A stretch of 32,000 nt of DNA, from the NCBI GenBank assembly GCA_048882505.1, contig JBHLRO010000013.1:30001-62000 (forward strand). The letters are read 5' to 3'. Shown one piece after another: positions 21,166-30,403 of this stretch; positions within the stretch are counted from its first letter, which is position 1; every line of letters starts with the position of its first letter. Source of the stretch: Candidatus Thorarchaeota archaeon. Lineage in GTDB: Archaea; Asgardarchaeota; Heimdallarchaeia; Hodarchaeales; Hodarchaeaceae. The notes beneath the pieces were generated by a model. It searched no databases. It had not been told where the DNA came from and saw only the letters and a program-made list of their open reading frames with translations. The translations under genes were made by a program, and so were the position numbers.

Positions 21166-21513
21166 ATGGATAGCCTTATTAAGGTAAAAAGGCCCTCACT
21201 CCATTGTTTCCTAATGCAAGCCGACCAAAAGAGATTAGTGGGGCCCGAAGTTCGAAAAGGGTTTTCTCTTAAGCATTATCTTCTTAGAGAACTCGGTAAC
21301 GCTAAAAAACGAATTTATATGAATTTGGAGACCCCTCATCCATATTGTGAGCTTGACTGTCCCTGGCTTTCTATTTGCAGGCAATCTTTGCCACCTGCTT
21401 GTATTCTTCCAGATCTTCTGGACTCTAACACTTGGATGGTGTTAACTCAGACTGAAAATCATCAAACAGAAGCTTTTGGAAAACCGAATTTCACCGAATA
21501 TAATGAGCTTTAA
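21166..21513 (+). CDS. Hypothetical protein with Cys cluster
   Basis: 115-aa ATG ORF filling the gap between panB and xpf; contains CELDCPWLSIC. Confidence 0.5.
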   Translation: MDSLIKVKRPSLHCFLMQADQKRLVGPEVRKGFSLKHYLLRELGNAKKRIYMNLETPHPYCELDCPWLSICRQSLPPACILPDLLDSNTWMVLTQTENHQTEAFGKPNFTEYNEL

Positions 21514-22278: not shown

Positions 22279-24675
22279 TCATTTTGGATGATACCCAGAC
22301 TTGTTCAAAGAACCAGGTAACATATTATTCTGCACCATCGATGTTACCATTCGCTGAATGAGATCTGGGGGAATATTTAGCATAGAAAAATCCCCCCATC
22401 GAATAGTTTTTTTCGCTTGTTGTTCGGGGCGGTTAATAAAGTACAGAATCCTCCCCGCAGCATTTTTTAGAGTTAAAATCCTTTCATCAGTTGTACGAAC
22501 AAGCTTCTCATTTTCGTCTATTAATTTATGGAAAAAATCCAATTGGTTTTGGTTAATATCTACGTCCAGAATTTCCCCCAGTTCCGAAAGTGCCAGTTCT
22601 TGCCGATATTCAATGATTCCTTTAATTTCCTGTTGTATTCCTTTCTCTGTGATAAACTCTCCAACTGAATTCGTTATTCCTGAAAGCTGGAGGATCTCAT
22701 GCACGATAATCCTTAGGATAAAGTCTGGTAGTTCTAATTTGAAGGCCAGCACGTCAAAATTGATACGGGGATGCGTACTGATCTCATTTTGAACTCGTGT
22801 GAGGAGGTGCTCTTGTATAAAATATCTACCTTCTTTATCTTGTCTACTCACGTACTCTTGAAGAAGAAATTCGGATATTTGACGTTGTATCTCAGTGTTG
22901 AGTCCGTTAAACCCAGATTCCTTGATAAACTGTTCCATATGCAAGTAACCATAGGTATCATAGTAATCTTTCACCTGGTCCAGAATGTTTTTTATTGAGG
23001 AAACCTTCCCAGAATCAACTCGAACGACTTGAACATTTATGGATTTTACAAGACTGTCAAGAAAAACAGAAAAATCAATTCCGATAACTGCTAGTAGATG
23101 TTCTACTTCGGTTTCACCTAAATTGTTAATATCGTGTTCTATTTTAGCCAGTTCAGAATGGTCAATGAAAACCTGTAACCCTTCCAACCATCGTCCAGGA
23201 TGGGTCCCGTTGATAAACTCCATAAATTCCCGAAATTCGATTTGTGGGTTACCTAATTCTTGTACAAATCTATTGAATTCCTGTATCTTGTATTGGGCCA
23301 AATTCGTTTTCCACTTTTCCTTCACAAAGCGCTGTGTAATGAAGACCTCTTCCGAATTTAACCAACCATCTGTAGGGTGATGTATTTTAGGAAGAATAAC
23401 CTCTCTTATTCGTTCTGAATCAACATTCGTTTGTTTGCTGAGATCTAATAGAGAAAGGTATCCTATATTTTGAATATCGTCAGATATCTTTGATAACAAC
23501 GCCTCAGTGATATAAATTTCAGGGGAAAGCCTGCTGGTACCCGAAATCTCAGATATTACAGTTTCAAGGATATCCTTTCCAATCTGATCAAAAGGGTAGC
23601 GTTGTAGTAAAGCGGGGAGCTGAATTACGTTAAATTGCTCAAATTCAGCCCTAACTAGCTGTTTCAGTCCGCTATCTGTAAAAATCGTTCCATCTGAAAG
23701 CGGATACAGCTGCAGTTTCAGCATCTCCTCGATGAGAATCTTGATTGCTAGTTCGGTCAATTGAAGTTCATTTGATAGTTCAGAGTATTGGAACTGAACT
23801 TTATTAGATACTCGATTTCGTAAATCTTCAATAGCAAAAGTCATCTGAGTTTGCAAAGCAGAAACTGCTGTATCGAAATTCTGTTTCGTGGTTCTGGTTC
23901 CAAGATGAAGTAAAGCCAGCAAGTCAAGTTTACCTTGTTCAATAACGGTTTTTATTACTTCAGATTCACTCTTCTTAAGAAAAGCCGCTGCGGTTTCACG
24001 TACGTAGTCGTTTGAGTCGGATAAATTCTCAATAAAGGAAATTAAAACTTCTGGGCTAGCTTTTTCCTCCATGCGTTCGAGGGCAGAACCTGCCTGGTTA
24101 CGCGTCAAATCATCGAATTCTGGATTACGCATGATCTCAATTAAAACTCCAATAGCCCGTGGCGTTTTTAGCTTACCTAAGGCATAAATTACAGTACGTC
24201 GAAGTCCACCTGTCTCAGTCTCTAGTAATCGTAAGAGAATTGGTTCTACTCCCTTGATCTGATGTTTTATAACAATATTTAGTGCAGTATTCAAAACTGC
24301 CTTACTGGGATCTTTTAATGCCTTCATGGTAAAATCTGGTAACTTAGAATGTCCCTTTTCTGATAACCACTCCAAAGCATATGAGCGAATGCCTGGATTT
24401 GGATCTTGGGGATCGGTAAGAATTGAAAAAACTAGAGGAGCAACTAGTTTTGGAGTTTCTCTAGCTGTTCCGATGAGTGTGATGATCGTTGCCTCCCTTA
24501 CTTGGTCATTCTCATCTTTTGTCAGCGTTTGCAGAGATTTTCTGACCATTCGTTCACGAAATTCTTCTGGATTAGATTCCAAGAATCTCCTAAGGTTGAT
24601 TACAGCAAAAAGACGAACTTCATGATTTGTGGCTTTCAGGTTTCTTAAATCAGTGACTACTGAGGATTCTGACAT
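22279..24675 (-). CDS. HEAT-repeat + multi-winged-helix repeat protein (UFL1-like repeats)
   Basis: aa 1-240 hold about 7 HEAT repeats (DENDQVREAT, DPNPGIRSYA, DPSKAVLNTA, GGLRRTVIYALG, DSNDYVRETAA). aa ~285-790 hold about 9 repeats of ~55 aa with pattern G.[FY]IT...L...I...G.L.L..L...L.[VL]D. Confidence 0.8.
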   Translation of the reverse strand: MSESSVVTDLRNLKATNHEVRLFAVINLRRFLESNPEEFRERMVRKSLQTLTKDENDQVREATIITLIGTARETPKLVAPLVFSILTDPQDPNPGIRSYALEWLSEKGHSKLPDFTMKALKDPSKAVLNTALNIVIKHQIKGVEPILLRLLETETGGLRRTVIYALGKLKTPRAIGVLIEIMRNPEFDDLTRNQAGSALERMEEKASPEVLISFIENLSDSNDYVRETAAAFLKKSESEVIKTVIEQGKLDLLALLHLGTRTTKQNFDTAVSALQTQMTFAIEDLRNRVSNKVQFQYSELSNELQLTELAIKILIEEMLKLQLYPLSDGTIFTDSGLKQLVRAEFEQFNVIQLPALLQRYPFDQIGKDILETVISEISGTSRLSPEIYITEALLSKISDDIQNIGYLSLLDLSKQTNVDSERIREVILPKIHHPTDGWLNSEEVFITQRFVKEKWKTNLAQYKIQEFNRFVQELGNPQIEFREFMEFINGTHPGRWLEGLQVFIDHSELAKIEHDINNLGETEVEHLLAVIGIDFSVFLDSLVKSINVQVVRVDSGKVSSIKNILDQVKDYYDTYGYLHMEQFIKESGFNGLNTEIQRQISEFLLQEYVSRQDKEGRYFIQEHLLTRVQNEISTHPRINFDVLAFKLELPDFILRIIVHEILQLSGITNSVGEFITEKGIQQEIKGIIEYRQELALSELGEILDVDINQNQLDFFHKLIDENEKLVRTTDERILTLKNAAGRILYFINRPEQQAKKTIRWGDFSMLNIPPDLIQRMVTSMVQNNMLPGSLNKSGYHPK

Positions 24676-24702: not shown

Positions 24703-25167
24703 TTAATCAGATACCCAATCTTTAAGGATGAAACTAGCGTCCCAACCAGACTTGGCTTGTACCACTTTTCCCTTGGATCCCAATAGCGACAAGAAACCCA
24801 GATAATTCTTTACAGTATTGATATCGATATTTGATAAGGCCTCCGCAATTTCATCCTCCGGTTTTCCTGTGGTTGATAAACTTTTCAAGATTTCCGCCGC
24901 ATCTTCAATAAGTTTATACCGATAGGGCTTGTTCGTTCTAGGTTCCCCGATCGGATCGAGCAGCCATTCATTATTCTTTTTGATTGCCCGACCGTACGAG
25001 TGAAGATATGCCAAGAAAGACAATGAATAATACGTATCACTCAGACATAGGTCAGTACCAGGTGAAACCTCATACGGGGTCACTTCATCAGCTAAATATT
25101 CCAGCTTCTCTATAACTTGCATGAAAGTGCTAAATGGGAATCCATTAAAGGGGGGGATCTCTAACAA
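24703..25167 (-). CDS. Hypothetical protein with two tandem winged-helix-like units
   Basis: Internal repeat YSLSFLAYLHSYGRAIKKNNEW versus NYLGFLSLLGSKGKVVQAKSGW. TTG start is uncertain. Confidence 0.65.
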   Translation of the reverse strand: MLEIPPFNGFPFSTFMQVIEKLEYLADEVTPYEVSPGTDLCLSDTYYSLSFLAYLHSYGRAIKKNNEWLLDPIGEPRTNKPYRYKLIEDAAEILKSLSTTGKPEDEIAEALSNIDINTVKNYLGFLSLLGSKGKVVQAKSGWDASFILKDWVSD

Positions 25168-25214: not shown

Positions 25215-25754
25215 TCATATCCGTCTATTAACTTTTTCGATTTCTTGTGCACGGATGTGACCTGATAGAATAAAGATTTTTTCTCCCAATACTGTTTTTT
25301 CCCCCGTTTGAGTGTATCCTTGTTTTTCATAAAAGGTTTTCAAGTAAGGAGTTTTTTCATAAATTTCTAACTCTATGGTCTTTATCTTAGAATTTCGTCT
25401 CGTTAATACGCGAGAAACTTCCTGAACTACCCATTTTCCGTAGCCCTGCCTTTGGTAACGTGGCGAGATTGAAAAGTGATACATCTTATATGTCTCTTCG
25501 TCCTGCTCTTTTAGCGACACAGTACCAATAATACGATTAGCAAGAGTGACAATAAAAAGTTCATGATTATCGAAAGTTTCCTTAATTTTTTTATCTGTAT
25601 TACTTAATACCCCAGGGGGGCGTGATAACGCCTGTAGAACGGGTAGATATGCCTCACGGATAATGGCCTCTATTTGTGGGAGGTGCTCTATTTTCGCTCT
25701 CTGTAATTCTAATTTTTGCACGAATGAACCCCGTTTATGATACTTTGTCATCAA
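25215..25754 (-). CDS. GNAT-family N-acetyltransferase
   Basis: IIGTVSL, FSISPRYQRQGYG (motif A), FYEKQGY; start overlaps the upstream stop (ATGA). Confidence 0.92.
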   Translation of the reverse strand: MMTKYHKRGSFVQKLELQRAKIEHLPQIEAIIREAYLPVLQALSRPPGVLSNTDKKIKETFDNHELFIVTLANRIIGTVSLKEQDEETYKMYHFSISPRYQRQGYGKWVVQEVSRVLTRRNSKIKTIELEIYEKTPYLKTFYEKQGYTQTGEKTVLGEKIFILSGHIRAQEIEKVNRRI

Positions 25755-26518
25755 TGGGGAATAATCTCTTTGATCTGGGCCACGGTATCTGAAATTTTTA
25801 CTACAAGGCTCTCGAGTTTGGTTTCGGGATTGCCATCAATGCAGAGTATCAATCCTTCAGATATCTTATATGCAACAAGATGAGTTGCCTCAGATGAAGC
25901 AATCAGATAGCGCAAATTTCGCATATGAGAGGAAACCGTTAGGATAGTGATGAAGGTGGACATTCTATCTCTGTCCATTTGGAATTCAACAACTGGCTCA
26001 CCCGTAAATGAAACAATCATGGCACCTCGTATACCGACATCCTCATTTTTGACGAGTTTTCGTAGATAAAAAAGAGCCGCCTCTTTCGAGGAAGAGAGTA
26101 ACTCACGTGTTTCTCCTTTAAAAACTGCATCCACCTGCATTGAAAAATTTCTGAACATTTCTGTGTCGATTAATTGAATATCCTTATGGTTGGGGTGCTC
26201 AGATAAAAATAAACTGGAGATCGTTTTAAGTTTAAATTGCAAATCCATAGTAGAGACTAGCGGGGAGGCCAAAACCGCGAATACCAAGCCATCTTTTTCT
26301 ATGAAAGAAAAACGGACGTCCTCCATATCCACCACCCGGAGATCACTTAATGCTGAGGATTCCGCAAAGGAAAACATTGCTGTCAAAAAAGCAACCACCA
26401 AATGTGGATCGGGCGCTTGTCTATTAATTTCCTCATAAGATCTAGTTATTAAAGTATCCCCACTTTCTCGTCGGAAGATAAAGAACGCCTTAATGTCTTT
26501 AAACGCATGCAATGACAA
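25751..26518 (-). CDS. Longin-like domain + roadblock/LC7-like domain fusion
   Basis: N-terminal half FFIFRRESGDTLITRSY..DPHLVVAFLTAMFSFA..LRVVDMEDVRFSFIEKDGLVFAV (longin pattern). C-terminal half GIRGAMIVSFTGEPVV..LRYLIASSE..HLVAYKISEGLILCI (roadblock pattern). Confidence 0.75.
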   Translation of the reverse strand: MSLHAFKDIKAFFIFRRESGDTLITRSYEEINRQAPDPHLVVAFLTAMFSFAESSALSDLRVVDMEDVRFSFIEKDGLVFAVLASPLVSTMDLQFKLKTISSLFLSEHPNHKDIQLIDTEMFRNFSMQVDAVFKGETRELLSSSKEAALFYLRKLVKNEDVGIRGAMIVSFTGEPVVEFQMDRDRMSTFITILTVSSHMRNLRYLIASSEATHLVAYKISEGLILCIDGNPETKLESLVVKISDTVAQIKEIIPH

Positions 26519-26530
26519 TGAAAAGTCACC

Positions 26531-27085
26531 TCATAAGAACTCTTTTGCCCTCACATTGAGGATATTCGTCGTCATGGTCTGGAATGCTTCATTTACATTC
26601 TTACCTGTTTTGGCGCTTGTTGTGATATAATCAATGACATGCATACTGTCTTTTGCCTTTTTTACTTCTGCCTGTGTAATGCCCGGTTTTAGGTCTACTT
26701 TATTTCCTATTAGGAGGGACAACGAATTTGGCGCAACACGGAGAACCTGGGCCTGCCAACGTTCCTGAATATGGATCAAGGTGTCTGCACGAGTTAAATC
26801 AAAAACATAGAACGCTCCTAAGGCCCCTTTTAAGTATAAATGAGAATAAGAAACATGTCGAGCTTGACCCGCGATATCCCATAACTGGAGGCTAACGTGG
26901 CGGATAGTATCTTGGGTATCTATAAAACGAATTGTTTTGGTTAAAAAATCTACCCCCAACGACATTGAATAATCTTCTTTGAATTTATTCTCAATAAACC
27001 GCAAAATTAAGCTTGTTTTCCCTACAGCCCCATCTCCCATCAAAAGCAATTTCAGAACATGTTTTATTTCTTTCATTTTGGGCAT
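26531..27085 (-). CDS. Rab-like small GTPase (Ras superfamily)
   Basis: G1 GDGAVGKT, G2 region SLGVDF, G3 WDIAGQ, G4 NKVD, G5 SAK; RabF-like LGVDF, SLQLW, YLKGA, YVFDLT; AGGAG upstream on the minus strand; no C-terminal Cys. Confidence 0.95.
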   Translation of the reverse strand: MPKMKEIKHVLKLLLMGDGAVGKTSLILRFIENKFKEDYSMSLGVDFLTKTIRFIDTQDTIRHVSLQLWDIAGQARHVSYSHLYLKGALGAFYVFDLTRADTLIHIQERWQAQVLRVAPNSLSLLIGNKVDLKPGITQAEVKKAKDSMHVIDYITTSAKTGKNVNEAFQTMTTNILNVRAKEFL

Positions 27086-27610: not shown

Positions 27611-29329
27611 TCAAATCTTAATTTCTTGACCTTCCAAGGGAATAATAATGTCCGGGCTCATCCTATGGATTTCAACCACGTATTCTCTTGTTTCATCCCC
27701 AAGATGCGTCAATACGAGCCGCTTGGTATATTCGGTTAGTTTTTTTGCTTGGAAATAATTTAGGTGGACTCCTGCGAGTTCACGACGAAAGAAATTGCAC
27801 TCTACCACTGCCAGATCTGTGTTTCTGACAAGTTCAATGAGATTGTCTGTCCATCCTGTATCCCCTGAATAAGCTAACTTCATGAATGGGGTTTCTATTC
27901 GATAACCCTGCGCTTCTGGTGTGTGTGCCATGGCAATAGGGATTATCTGTATCCCATTGCTAGCAAAAGGCTTTTTATGAGTTATTTCAACGTAATAGCA
28001 CGGATGGGGGAGTTCGATTTTTGGTATATTTCCATAAAACAGGTGAAACAATTCACTAATTCGGTTTTTGAGTAGAGGAGGCCCAAGGATCGTGAGAGGT
28101 TTGGTGCGTGATGGGTGAAGATACATCAATTCCAAAAGGAGGAAGGGCATGCCAGCCAGATGATCTCCATGAAAATGGGTGATAAGAATCATATCGAGAT
28201 CATCGGTACTTCTCCCCGTTGCCTTCAATGCCTGAAGAGCATGGGGTCCGCAATCCAAGAGAATTCCCTTATGCTGAAATTCTAAAAAAATACCTGCACT
28301 CTTAAAGCCAGCCGCAGCAAAAGCATCTCCTGTTCCTAAAAAAACTAAATTCCCATGAGGTTTATTTTTTGAAAGTATCCGAGTTCCTACTGATCTGCTA
28401 TTATTCAAAACATAAGGAAAATCTTCTACACCAGTAACCACACAATCTACATACCCTCTCGCGAGCTGAACAATATTTTCCAATTTTCCCTGCATAGCAC
28501 CCGTCACATCGTGTCCTCCGCTGGTTTCCCCGCTTTCGAATTCCAATAAAGCGTTTTTCTCTCCATAGCATAGATAACGGTCAGGAAAAACTTCTATTCT
28601 GTTAATATATTTTGCTCCGTTTAAAAATGGATCCTTGGTATATATTCCAACCTTTTTTCCTGAGACTTGTGTAATAAAGATTGCCCTGGTCAAGTTAAGC
28701 CCTGAAATACGATCCATGAGTGCAGATGGAATAATATCCCCTGAAAACACTCGCCATCCATCGTGAGTGTAACCCATATCTCCAAAAAACATAGGTATTA
28801 CATTCGTATTGCTAATTAAATCCTCCAGTACGTCAAGATTGGGCGCGGTTACCTTTTTTGCCGCTTTTTCTGTAGTAGGATCTCCTCTCAAGATCTGATG
28901 CGAAGTAATGGAAACGGTCGGTAGTCCCGCCTGGATCCCTGTCGCGACAAGAATCTGGTTCTGAATTCCGACTGCTAGCTTGATAACGGGGGAAATTTCC
29001 TGGAGGGTTTTTACATCCTCTGCAAGCGTGGCAACAAGGGGATGACCAATAGAGCCAGCACCATGCAATAGGATTATCTTTTCATGGGGAGTCTGCCTAA
29101 GATGACCACGTATGGTCGTGAAAATTTTATTGGCTTGTTGCAGATCAAGAAGATTGAAGATAGTGGTCTGCAAATCAGACAAATTGGCAGAAGAGTCCAT
29201 AAAACTCTCGATCGAAGTCAAGTATTCATGAATCCTGTCATTATCATGCTTTCGTGTGATTACGTTTCCTCCCAGTTTAACTAGCGTAAGATCCTGCTTT
29301 TTCATTACTTTAATCCCAGCATAGCTCAC
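27611..29329 (-). CDS. Isopentenyl phosphate kinase (amino-acid-kinase fold) fused to an MBL-fold metallohydrolase
   Basis: aa ~14-319: LVKLGGNVIT, HGAGSIGH, FGD, FSGD, DVTGAMQGKL. aa ~326-572: FLGTG, LLDCG, THFHGDH, YSGDT, VVEC, HLN, LTHL. Likely ATG start at 29305. Confidence 0.88.
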   Translation of the reverse strand: MSYAGIKVMKKQDLTLVKLGGNVITRKHDNDRIHEYLTSIESFMDSSANLSDLQTTIFNLLDLQQANKIFTTIRGHLRQTPHEKIILLHGAGSIGHPLVATLAEDVKTLQEISPVIKLAVGIQNQILVATGIQAGLPTVSITSHQILRGDPTTEKAAKKVTAPNLDVLEDLISNTNVIPMFFGDMGYTHDGWRVFSGDIIPSALMDRISGLNLTRAIFITQVSGKKVGIYTKDPFLNGAKYINRIEVFPDRYLCYGEKNALLEFESGETSGGHDVTGAMQGKLENIVQLARGYVDCVVTGVEDFPYVLNNSRSVGTRILSKNKPHGNLVFLGTGDAFAAAGFKSAGIFLEFQHKGILLDCGPHALQALKATGRSTDDLDMILITHFHGDHLAGMPFLLLELMYLHPSRTKPLTILGPPLLKNRISELFHLFYGNIPKIELPHPCYYVEITHKKPFASNGIQIIPIAMAHTPEAQGYRIETPFMKLAYSGDTGWTDNLIELVRNTDLAVVECNFFRRELAGVHLNYFQAKKLTEYTKRLVLTHLGDETREYVVEIHRMSPDIIIPLEGQEIKI

Positions 29330-29353: not shown

Positions 29354-30403
29354 CTATGGTTTATTAATTTCGTTAAGAACTGCTGCAACCAGAAGATCTA
29401 ATGTAGCTTGAATATCGTTCATACGGACAGTTTCAAAATCAGTATGGGTATACCGGGTTGGTACAGCTACCATTACCGTGGGATGGCCTCTTTGGAAAAA
29501 ATGCATTCCATCTGTGTTGAAATTTCTGAAAACTGCTTTTTGCATAGGTACCTCGAAATTCTGGGCACTTTTTTCCAAGAGCTTAATGTTATCTATGGAA
29601 TAGTGGATTGAAAAGTCTTTATAGACGATTATTGGCCCCGCTCCTAGTTTTGTAGGTAAGAAATCTTGTTCAGATGAAGGAATATCACCTACCAGACCAA
29701 CATCAATAATAATTACCAAATCATACCTATCATGAAGTGCAGCAGCAGCGGCTCCTTTCATTCCGATTTCTTCTTGCACAGTTGAGACCAATGTTAGATT
29801 TGGAGAGGTTTTTCTTCCTAAAACCTCATCCACTAAAAGACACTGAAGAGTCAAAGCCACTCGATTATCCATACTTGGACCCACGATGTTTCGCTGCCTA
29901 TGTACCACACTGGATGCAAAAACAGCTGGTGTTCCAATATCTATCCCTAGCGCATGGACTTCTTGATCTGAATCGACGCCAAGGTCAATGAAAATCTCTG
30001 GAAAGAGCACGGGTTTTTTTTTACCCTCGATTCCCGCCAGATGGCCGCTACGCAGTCCAATGTAACCTTCGACAGTCCCTGTATCTGTAAGAAACCTTAA
30101 GGGAACTCCCGATAGGAACCGTGCATCCGGAGTGGTAGCTGCTGTGTTAAAAGCAACCTTTAAAAATCCGTTGGGAAGAATTCGCTCAACCAGGAACCCT
30201 ATCGTATCTGCATGCCCTACAATAGCGATATGTTTTCCTTCCCCTTCCAGGCGACCGAACAAATTGCCGACCTTGTCTTCCGACGTTTTTAACCCCATTC
30301 CCTTCCAATTGTTTCTGAGAAAGTGTTGAACAGCCCCTTCTCGACCTACGGGTCCAGGTATTTCTGCTAGTTGCTTCAACAATCCAAAAATATCATGATC
30401 CAT
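29354..30403 (-). CDS. M42-family metallopeptidase (TET-like aminopeptidase)
   Basis: GPVGRE, DKVGNL, GHADTIG, FIDLG, SMDNR, TVQEEIGMKGA, IDV, TDG, VPTRYTH. Confidence 0.95.
   Translation of the reverse strand: MDHDIFGLLKQLAEIPGPVGREGAVQHFLRNNWKGMGLKTSEDKVGNLFGRLEGEGKHIAIVGHADTIGFLVERILPNGFLKVAFNTAATTPDARFLSGVPLRFLTDTGTVEGYIGLRSGHLAGIEGKKKPVLFPEIFIDLGVDSDQEVHALGIDIGTPAVFASSVVHRQRNIVGPSMDNRVALTLQCLLVDEVLGRKTSPNLTLVSTVQEEIGMKGAAAAALHDRYDLVIIIDVGLVGDIPSSEQDFLPTKLGAGPIIVYKDFSIHYSIDNIKLLEKSAQNFEVPMQKAVFRNFNTDGMHFFQRGHPTVMVAVPTRYTHTDFETVRMNDIQATLDLLVAAVLNEINKP

Follow-up and report, generated by a model that had tools for sequence, protein, structure and literature searches.

What does a long array of winged-helix (wH) domains resembling those of UFL1, the eukaryotic UFM1 E3 ligase, do in an archaeon? 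The question is raised by a locus of a Candidatus Thorarchaeota archaeon (GenBank assembly GCA_048882505.1), analysed here within a stretch of 32,000 nucleotides (nt) of contig JBHLRO010000013.1 (positions 30,001 to 62,000; hereafter the window, G+C ~40%). An uninterrupted open reading frame (ORF) on the minus strand, positions 22279-24675 of the window, encodes a protein of 798 amino acids (aa), P0001, which an earlier note made from the sequence alone had described as HEAT repeats followed by about nine ~55-aa wH repeats of the UFL1/PCI type. P0001, a soluble protein, joins a HEAT-repeat solenoid to a tandem array of nine wH domains. The comparisons reported below support UFL1 as the nearest characterised relative of these domains, well ahead of generic wH families; P0001 itself is not a UFL1 orthologue. 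With a probability of roughly 60%, it acts as a soluble, non-enzymatic, UFM1-independent scaffold for protein-protein contacts.

Architecture of P0001

The N-terminal part of P0001 is a HEAT solenoid of the PBS-lyase type (PF13646/PF03130). The Pfam HEAT_2 model scores 71.5 bits (cut-off 27.7, E 7e-20), and with further matches to HEAT, HEAT_EZ and HEAT_PBS the HEAT matches together span aa ~12-246. In the PDB, phmmer matches this part to designed alphaRep (PBS-HEAT) proteins (E 1.5e-16). In the structure predicted with AlphaFold 2 (AF2) this part contains 15 helices within aa 3-246, and orthologues keep the N-terminus MSExSV..DL.

A first AF2 model, computed from a four-sequence alignment, was poor in its C-terminal half (predicted local distance difference test, pLDDT, 61.5) and was superseded by a model of aa 250-798 computed from 27 sequences, which came from the orthologues of 21 genomes of the same genus and nine representatives retrieved by an exhaustive hidden Markov model (HMM) search. 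The second model has a mean pLDDT of 89.8, with no residue below 50, and contains nine successive units of the form helix-strand-helix-helix-strand-strand (H-b-H-H-b-b) over aa 279-797 (nt 23841-22282); the protein stops one residue past the last strand of the ninth unit, unit 8. The domain order and repeat number proposed earlier are thus borne out by the Pfam HEAT matches, the 7-8 helical hairpins and the nine modelled units. The extent then given for the repeats (~23830-22282) agrees with the model, and the three repeat peptides quoted at the time are present at aa 386-419, 616-650 and 672-706.

As judged by profile comparison, the internal repeats of the array exceed chance. Its two halves (aa 265-560 and aa 561-798) align with an hhalign probability of 96% (E 4.7e-9, 155 columns), and a second register reaches 95%. 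A clean block duplication, with units 0-3 equivalent to units 5-8, is unsupported, two different registers scoring equally. When single units were compared in local mode, only the pairs 2/6, 2/5 and 0/6 exceeded 80%, while units 1, 4 and 7 matched no other unit above 30% probability; in global mode most values were below 5%, so that the repeats are seen in local mode and between halves. Unit 4 has no sequence likeness to the other units. Conserved columns are most numerous in units 4 and 6, which are jointly the best conserved, and fewer in unit 7; the 12 columns of unit 4 that are at least 90% conserved are the most of any unit. The array is acidic (net charge -23, isoelectric point (pI) 5.1), with eight of its nine units acidic or neutral.

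No transmembrane (TM) segment was found in P0001, as had been stated before: the maximal 19-residue Kyte-Doolittle mean is 1.64 and lies inside a wH helix. Membrane anchoring was likewise rejected for the family, a TM-like segment occurring in no orthologue. The accompanying idea that the HEAT repeats replace a membrane anchor does not hold, since the eukaryotic anchor belongs to DDRGK1/UFBP1 and not to UFL1 (PMC9627666), and the archaeal relatives examined are also devoid of TM segments.

Kinship of the winged-helix array with UFL1

Structural comparison places the array next to UFL1. The top five Foldseek matches in the PDB are all UFL1 or a UFL1-DDRGK1 chimera (E 2.1e-9 to 3.8e-8; entries 8qfc_B, at 2.1e-9, 8ohd_A, the DDRGK1-UFL1 chimera 8b9x, and 9gy4_E), and the next match follows at 1.3e-3; SelB, RPC82, cullins and the COP9 signalosome (CSN) rank at E values of at least 1e-3. 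The best VIA-align match is 8b9x_A (Z 12.7, 234 of 256 residues aligned). All 30 of the best Swiss-Prot models are UFL1 proteins, from animals, plants, Dictyostelium and Trichoplax, aligned at UFL1 residues ~1-420. A shape search of the ESM Atlas with the P0001 model retrieved a Promethearchaeota DDRGK/UFL1/PCI cluster together with eukaryotic UFL1, and language-model features led to eukaryotic PF09743 clusters, which is taken as a lead only.

At the level of sequence, the best non-HEAT Pfam family for the wH region is E3_UFM1_ligase (PF09743), with PCI second across the family. PF09743 passes narrowly on aa 322-454 of P0001 (24.1 bits against a gathering cut-off of 23.2, E 3.2e-5). PCI (PF01399) stays under its cut-off of 22 in P0001 (14.9 bits, E 0.032) and reaches E<=1 in 4 of 11 family members (best 5e-4). 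A phmmer search of the PDB with aa 250-798 returned nothing at E<=10. A second weak PF09743 match in the genome, on contig 7, proved to be ScpB, which is unrelated. The assignment of the repeats to a UFL1/PCI type therefore stands on the Pfam ranking and on the lead of UFL1 over generic wH families in Foldseek. The two outcomes named in the earlier note as contrary to its proposal, a likeness to UFL1 no greater than to generic wH families or a fold other than wH, were not seen in Foldseek, Swiss-Prot or AF2.

UFL1 (PF09743; PDB 8qfc, 8ohd, 8b9x, 8c0d) and P0001 have in common a core formed by a tandem array of PCI-like wH domains and a sequence pattern of wing strand, helix 1, strand and helix 2, at an identity of 11-15%. 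Their ends differ. Human UFL1 has a UFC1-binding helix (aa 1-25) at its N-terminus, followed by a partial wH domain that DDRGK1/UFBP1 completes; then come five further wH domains and a helical C-terminal region, CTR/CTD (PMC9627666, PMC10702826). P0001, in contrast, has nine complete wH domains in one chain, the first of them predicted to be complete without a partner; it carries HEAT repeats over 250 aa and a pair of linker helices where UFL1 has its UFC1-binding helix, and the C-terminal helical region is absent. P0001 is therefore not a UFL1 orthologue, because it has neither the N-terminal E2-binding helix with its partial wH domain nor the C-terminal region.

Two other groups of proteins resemble P0001 in part. 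PCI-domain proteins (Rpn subunits of the proteasome lid, CSN, eIF3; PF01399) likewise combine a helical-repeat solenoid with a following wH domain, and the best single-domain structural matches of unit 8 are the PCI wH domains of proteasome-lid and CSN subunits (Z ~9, root-mean-square deviation (rmsd) 1.2-1.4 A); the matches of this unit also include the nucleic-acid-binding Z-alpha domain, scoring below them. In PCI proteins, however, a single wH domain is packed on the solenoid and subunits assemble side by side, whereas in P0001 nine wH domains extend from the solenoid through a two-helix linker. The C-terminal wH1-4 of SelB also form a tandem array (VIA-align Z 10.5 over 115 residues), but their Foldseek E value is about 2 million times worse than that of UFL1 (4e-3 vs 2e-9), and the SelB array binds SECIS RNA while that of P0001 is acidic overall.

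Single-chain arrays in other Asgard archaea

The P0001 family HMM gave weak repeated matches (1e-13 to 1e-4) in ~790-aa proteins of another Asgard family, in 64 of its 135 genomes. Profile comparison of the P0001 family with these Loki-type (Promethearchaeota) proteins gave hhalign probabilities of 95.6% and 95.1% (E 1.2e-8), both halves of the P0001 array aligning to Loki-type aa ~140-465; the 154-aa protein encoded next to P0001, used as a specificity control, stayed below 3% against both wH-array profiles. In Pfam, Loki-type proteins match PF09743 (58-67 bits), DDRGK (45-65 bits) and PCI (up to 93 bits) and have a Vps28-like C-terminus.

Both kinds of protein contain a homologous wH array in a single chain, have no TM segment and are specific to Asgard archaea. 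They differ in that Loki-type proteins have a Cys-rich N-terminus and a Vps28-like C-terminal half and no HEAT repeats, whereas P0001 has neither of these ends; the Loki-type wH run is also shorter, at ~320 aa. Loki-type proteins occur in 118 of the 135 genomes of their family, the P0001 family in one genus only. The Loki-type loci examined were L025:901-3270 (+), L026:862-3228 (+), L028:358-2730 (-), L029:808-3156 (+) and L032:409-2760 (-); the Cys-rich N-terminus of their products is Zn-ribbon-like.

The Loki-type profile matches the human DDRGK1-UFL1 chimera 8b9x_A with an E value of 2.5e-9 in HMMER. The alignment is a single continuous stretch (Loki-type aa 142-300) that crosses the DDRGK1-to-UFL1 junction. 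The Loki-type protein thus corresponds, as a naturally occurring single chain, to the DDRGK1+UFL1 composite. The unbroken run across the junction suggests that a single wH array, split within one of its domains, gave rise to the eukaryotic DDRGK1/UFL1 pair. The HMMER alignment to 8b9x_A also contains, without a letter changed, the human UFL1 peptide quoted in the earlier note.

Taken with the structural matches, these results support homology of the P0001 array with Asgard single-chain wH arrays and, via them, with the wH backbone of eukaryotic DDRGK1/UFBP1 and UFL1. The alternative, that convergence or generic similarity explains the likeness to UFL1 and that P0001 contains a long wH run unrelated to the UFL1/DDRGK1 lineage, is very improbable. 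It would account for the marginal direct sequence evidence (24 bits), for the many wH families matched by single units in structural comparison (Z 7-9) and for bacterial helix-turn-helix arrays named 'sigma-70 region 4' that match the model at 6e-9 to 1e-6. It does not fit the PDB E values, in which UFL1 leads all other wH arrays by four to five orders of magnitude, the uniform Swiss-Prot result, or the 95.6% profile link to Asgard proteins with strong PF09743, DDRGK and PCI matches, a link that the 154-aa control does not reproduce.

The wH module and its Asgard-eukaryote link are already known. UFL1/DDRGK1-like proteins in Asgard archaea have been published (PMC10183829; bioRxiv 10.1101/2020.10.19.343400), and Liu et al. 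noted the fusion of a Zn-ribbon, DDRGK, E3_UFM1_ligase and PCI/Vps28 (bioRxiv 10.1101/2020.10.19.343400); the novelty that had been claimed for an archaeal protein of this type was overstated. PF09743 exceeds its cut-off in 172 of 400 Asgard genomes. A third, short form of 250-285 aa, with PF09743 matched at positions ~115-266 (E 1e-8 to 1e-4), occurs in 18 of the 31 genomes of a sister family of the same class (f4; G011-G041, Heimdall-group), for example at G041:C66:6706-7077 and G022:C43:7407-7829.

Distribution and rate of evolution

The full-length P0001 family is present in all 21 genomes of one GTDB genus; a search of 378 further Asgard genomes did not find it and gave only weak cross-family matches. 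An exhaustive HMM search of 1.8 billion representatives retrieved only nine clusters (50%-identity representatives), and an alignment-based homologue search added nothing to the same four close relatives; a search for related loci with a four-row alignment gave one locus. In public data the nearest relative (85% identity) carries only the annotation 'HEAT repeat domain-containing protein' and comes from a Candidatus Heimdallarchaeota metagenome-assembled genome. One metagenomic representative, P0016 (402 aa), begins with 45 residues that match the start of TIR_2 (30 bits, profile positions 1-34), followed by ~65 unrelated residues and then by the last five wH units of the P0001 family; gene rearrangement or a chimeric assembly may account for it.

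P0001 is the fastest-evolving gene of its syntenic block. Its products are 35-42% identical across the genus, as against 71-77% for the GTPase, 63-68% for the longin-like protein and 63-72% for the XPF nuclease encoded nearby; the flanking GTPase, longin, XPF and PanB genes together range from 63 to 80%.

Proposed function

A role for P0001 as a UFM1-independent adaptor is suggested by the acidic array, the conserved units, the PCI-like fold and the scaffold role of such arrays (PMC9627666). The net charge of the array favours a protein scaffold over a nucleic-acid binder. The PBS-type HEAT solenoid would form a protein-binding platform that holds a client, and the elongated wH rod would contact a large partner along its length, so that P0001 would bridge the two. 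Docking would probably involve units 4 and 6-7, which are conserved, and a nucleic-acid contact might be made by unit 8, which is basic. P0001 probably does not ligate UFM1, because the array is acidic, the E2-binding N-terminus and the ribosome-binding C-terminal region specific to UFL1 are absent, and UFC1 and DDRGK1 were undetected. The origin of UFL1/DDRGK1 has been traced to Asgard archaea, where their homologues are proposed to predate UFM1 and to have a UFM1-independent function (PMC10183829); the adaptor reading agrees with this proposal.

The Pfam models UFC1, DDRGK and CDK5RAP3 were not detected in the genome (94.5% complete). Given these negatives and the missing UFL1-specific ends, a role in UFMylation is not supported. 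The genome does contain other ubiquitin-like (Ubl) systems: it encodes four UBC-type E2s, three ubiquitin-like genes and five ThiF-type E1s, ThiF not being specific to UBA5. A ubiquitin-like gene is clustered with genes for a ThiF-type E1 and a UBC-type E2 at three places, C11 (19244-37497), C9 (36145-38719) and C18 (2410-5463), all on contigs other than that of the P0001 gene.

It is accordingly worth asking whether P0001 is a true scaffold-type E3, or an E3 subunit, for an archaeal Ubl, either a divergent Asgard Ufm1 or one of the ubiquitin-like proteins of the genome, with the HEAT repeats doing the substrate or adaptor job of DDRGK1/CDK5RAP3. This is unlikely, though the least so among the alternatives. 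Three tandem wH domains suffice for E2 activation in human UFL1/UFBP1 (PMC9627666), UFL1 is the nearest structural relative of the array, candidate conjugation components are encoded in the genome, and Ufm1 homologues have been found in nine Asgard clades by structure-guided searches (PMC12962969), where the Pfam model is blind. On the other hand, a UFC1-type E2 was not detected in the genome, P0001 has no free N-terminal helix with a partial wH domain, through which UFL1 binds UFC1 (PMC10702826, PMC9627666), the three clusters all lie on contigs other than its own, and restriction to one genus with fast evolution would be unusual for a core conjugation enzyme.

A more specific version, and a quite improbable one, places P0001 in an archaeal pathway of the Heimdall lineage, for proto-UFMylation or for another Ubl, in which it would serve as the E3-like scaffold. 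The array would activate an unrecognised E2~Ubl carrying an Asgard Ufm1-like beta-grasp protein, and the HEAT repeats would select the substrate, for example the ribosome or XPF. To our knowledge, UFL1/DDRGK1 is the only scaffold-type E3 made of winged helices. If this version were true, P0001 would show a scaffold-type E3 working before UFL1 and DDRGK1 became separate proteins.

Several observations weigh against reading P0001 as a UFM1-independent scaffold akin to UFL1. Direct recognition by PF09743 is marginal: E<=1 in 4 of 11 family representatives, and E<=0.001 in 4 of the 21 other genomes of the genus. An 11-sequence family HMM retrieved no UFL1 from the PDB at E<=10, its only matches being to SRP54 at a chance-level E of 0.2. 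TM-scores to UFL1 are low (0.2-0.3), which is usual for flexible multi-domain arrays and not decisive. Two uncharacterised clusters of the AlphaFold database outscore UFL1 against the model (E 3.9e-18 and 2.8e-16). The Pfam Ufm1 model found nothing in the genome, but this is uninformative, since no match above its cut-off was obtained in any of 400 Asgard genomes; the absence of Ufm1 cannot be concluded, because this model misses the Asgard homologues reported in PMC12962969. A Ubl-related role of P0001 is possible given the three clusters described above. Finally, the term scaffold is inferred from fold and composition.

The two clusters that outscore UFL1 are represented by A0A524E910 (644 aa) and A0A850MAI2 (724 aa, annotated 'PCI domain-containing protein'), both long wH arrays. 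They may be further archaeal members of the wH-rod group with other N-terminal domains.

Gene neighbourhood

The P0001 gene is the fifth of six minus-strand genes in the order GTPase, longin, GNAT, 154-aa protein, P0001 and XPF, separated by gaps of 12 nt, a 4-nt overlap, and gaps of 47, 27 and 19 nt (Table 1). In all 12 genomes of the genus inspected the order is GTPase, longin, (GNAT), (154-aa protein), M42 peptidase, HEAT-wH protein, XPF; the GTPase and longin genes are present in all 12, whereas the GNAT and 154-aa genes are variably present. The same syntenic block also retains unrelated pantothenate genes. For this reason, and because it covers one genus only, the synteny says little on function.

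Table 1. Coordinates of P0001, its domains and its neighbours in the window.
Feature	Position (nt)	Strand	Remarks
Whole gene P0001	22279..24675	-	798 aa; ATG start; GAGGT Shine-Dalgarno-like motif 7 nt upstream
HEAT solenoid, PBS-lyase type, aa 1-250	23926..24675	-	15 helices, ~7-8 hairpins; net charge 0
Two linker helices, solenoid to wH array, aa 251-278	23842..23925	-	AF2 model; weak alignment to DDRGK1-like WH1' region of Loki-type proteins
wH unit 0, aa 279-333	23677..23841	-	AF2, pLDDT ~90; predicted complete in one chain
wH unit 1, aa 334-390	23506..23676	-	AF2; within Pfam PF09743 match aa 322-454
wH unit 2, aa 391-447	23335..23505	-	AF2; likeness to units 5 and 6, hhalign 85-92%
wH unit 3, aa 448-505	23161..23334	-	AF2
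wH unit 4, aa 506-560	22996..23160	-	AF2; atypical, without first strand
wH unit 5, aa 561-621	22813..22995	-	AF2
wH unit 6, aa 622-676	22648..22812	-	AF2; conserved motifs RINFDVLAFKL and GFTNxxGEFIT
wH unit 7, aa 677-735	22471..22647	-	AF2; most acidic unit, net -7
wH unit 8, aa 736-798	22282..22470	-	AF2; sole basic unit, pI 10.4
XPF/ERCC4 nuclease, short, 237 aa	21546..22259	-	19 nt past P0001 stop; own GGAG motif
154-aa protein, no known family (possibly wH-like)	24703..25167	-	In about half of the genus
GNAT acetyltransferase	25215-25754	-	Upstream of 154-aa gene
Longin-like protein	25751-26518	-	Upstream of GNAT
Ras-family small GTPase	26531-27085	-	Upstream of longin

The constant downstream neighbour raises the question of whether P0001 is a cofactor of XPF, a repair scaffold that recruits or regulates the nuclease and possibly touches DNA through its basic last wH domain. 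The XPF gene lies directly behind the P0001 gene on the same strand, at 19-45 nt, in 12 of the 12 genomes, each gene having its own Shine-Dalgarno-like motif. MUS81, the eukaryotic XPF-family partner, has wH domains, and the matches of the basic last unit include Z-alpha besides the better-scoring PCI domains. Such a role is nonetheless improbable: the conserved order extends over the whole block including the pantothenate genes, eight of the nine units are acidic or neutral, and the contrast between XPF (63-72% identity) and P0001 (35-42%) is not the pattern of tightly co-evolving partners. A predicted complex of P0001 (17-row alignment) with XPF residues 1-200 (12-row alignment) scored 0.00 in two runs, which is evidence neither way.

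On the upstream side, P0001 could be an effector or regulator scaffold of the Ras-family GTPase/longin pair, its alpha-solenoid binding the GTPase much as Ran is bound by HEAT proteins of the importin-beta type. The short gaps between the six same-strand genes in the window and the constancy of the GTPase and longin genes in the block would fit, as would a weak Pfam IBN_N match on aa 16-64 of P0001 (17 bits). That match is below its cut-off of 21, however; moreover, an M42 peptidase gene parts the P0001 gene from the upstream genes in the 12 other genomes inspected, and the GNAT and 154-aa genes come and go. A GTPase effector is thus about as doubtful as an XPF cofactor. The functional tie to the GTPase module or to XPF that had been raised in the earlier note is not supported by more than synteny within one genus.

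The 154-aa protein was also considered as a DDRGK1-like partner and rejected on its hhalign values of less than 3% against both wH-array profiles; ESM Atlas matches suggest that it is wH-like, with no detectable likeness to the wH array.

Further observations concern the surroundings of the block. The M42 peptidase gene found directly upstream of the HEAT-wH gene in the 12 other genomes (L033-L044) is absent from that position in the window; it is a paralogue, 25-31% identical to the M42 peptidase encoded at 29354-30403 of the window. A single minus-strand ORF at 27611-29329 combines an amino-acid-kinase-family (isopentenyl-phosphate-kinase-like) domain with a metallo-beta-lactamase domain and is kept upstream of the GTPase gene in the genus. 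Convergent to XPF, a plus-strand ORF at 21166-21513 encodes a Cys-containing protein of 115 aa that belongs to no Pfam family and is found in 11 of the 12 genomes at 32-53% identity.

Implications

P0001 is new in its HEAT-(wH)9 architecture, in having a first unit that is complete by itself, in the absence of the ends specific to UFL1 and in belonging to a fast-evolving family restricted to one genus. The value of the finding is limited by this narrow occurrence, by the rapid divergence and by the fact that no partner was identified. Within these limits, a genus of the Heimdall group possesses the same wH module as other Asgard archaea and eukaryotes in a different form, a longer, self-contained nine-unit rod joined to a HEAT platform. 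This supports the view that the wH rod started as a general-purpose, UFM1-independent scaffold that became fused to varied heads, HEAT repeats here and Zn-ribbon/Vps28 in the Loki type. P0001 also offers a tractable soluble protein for asking what wH rods bind.

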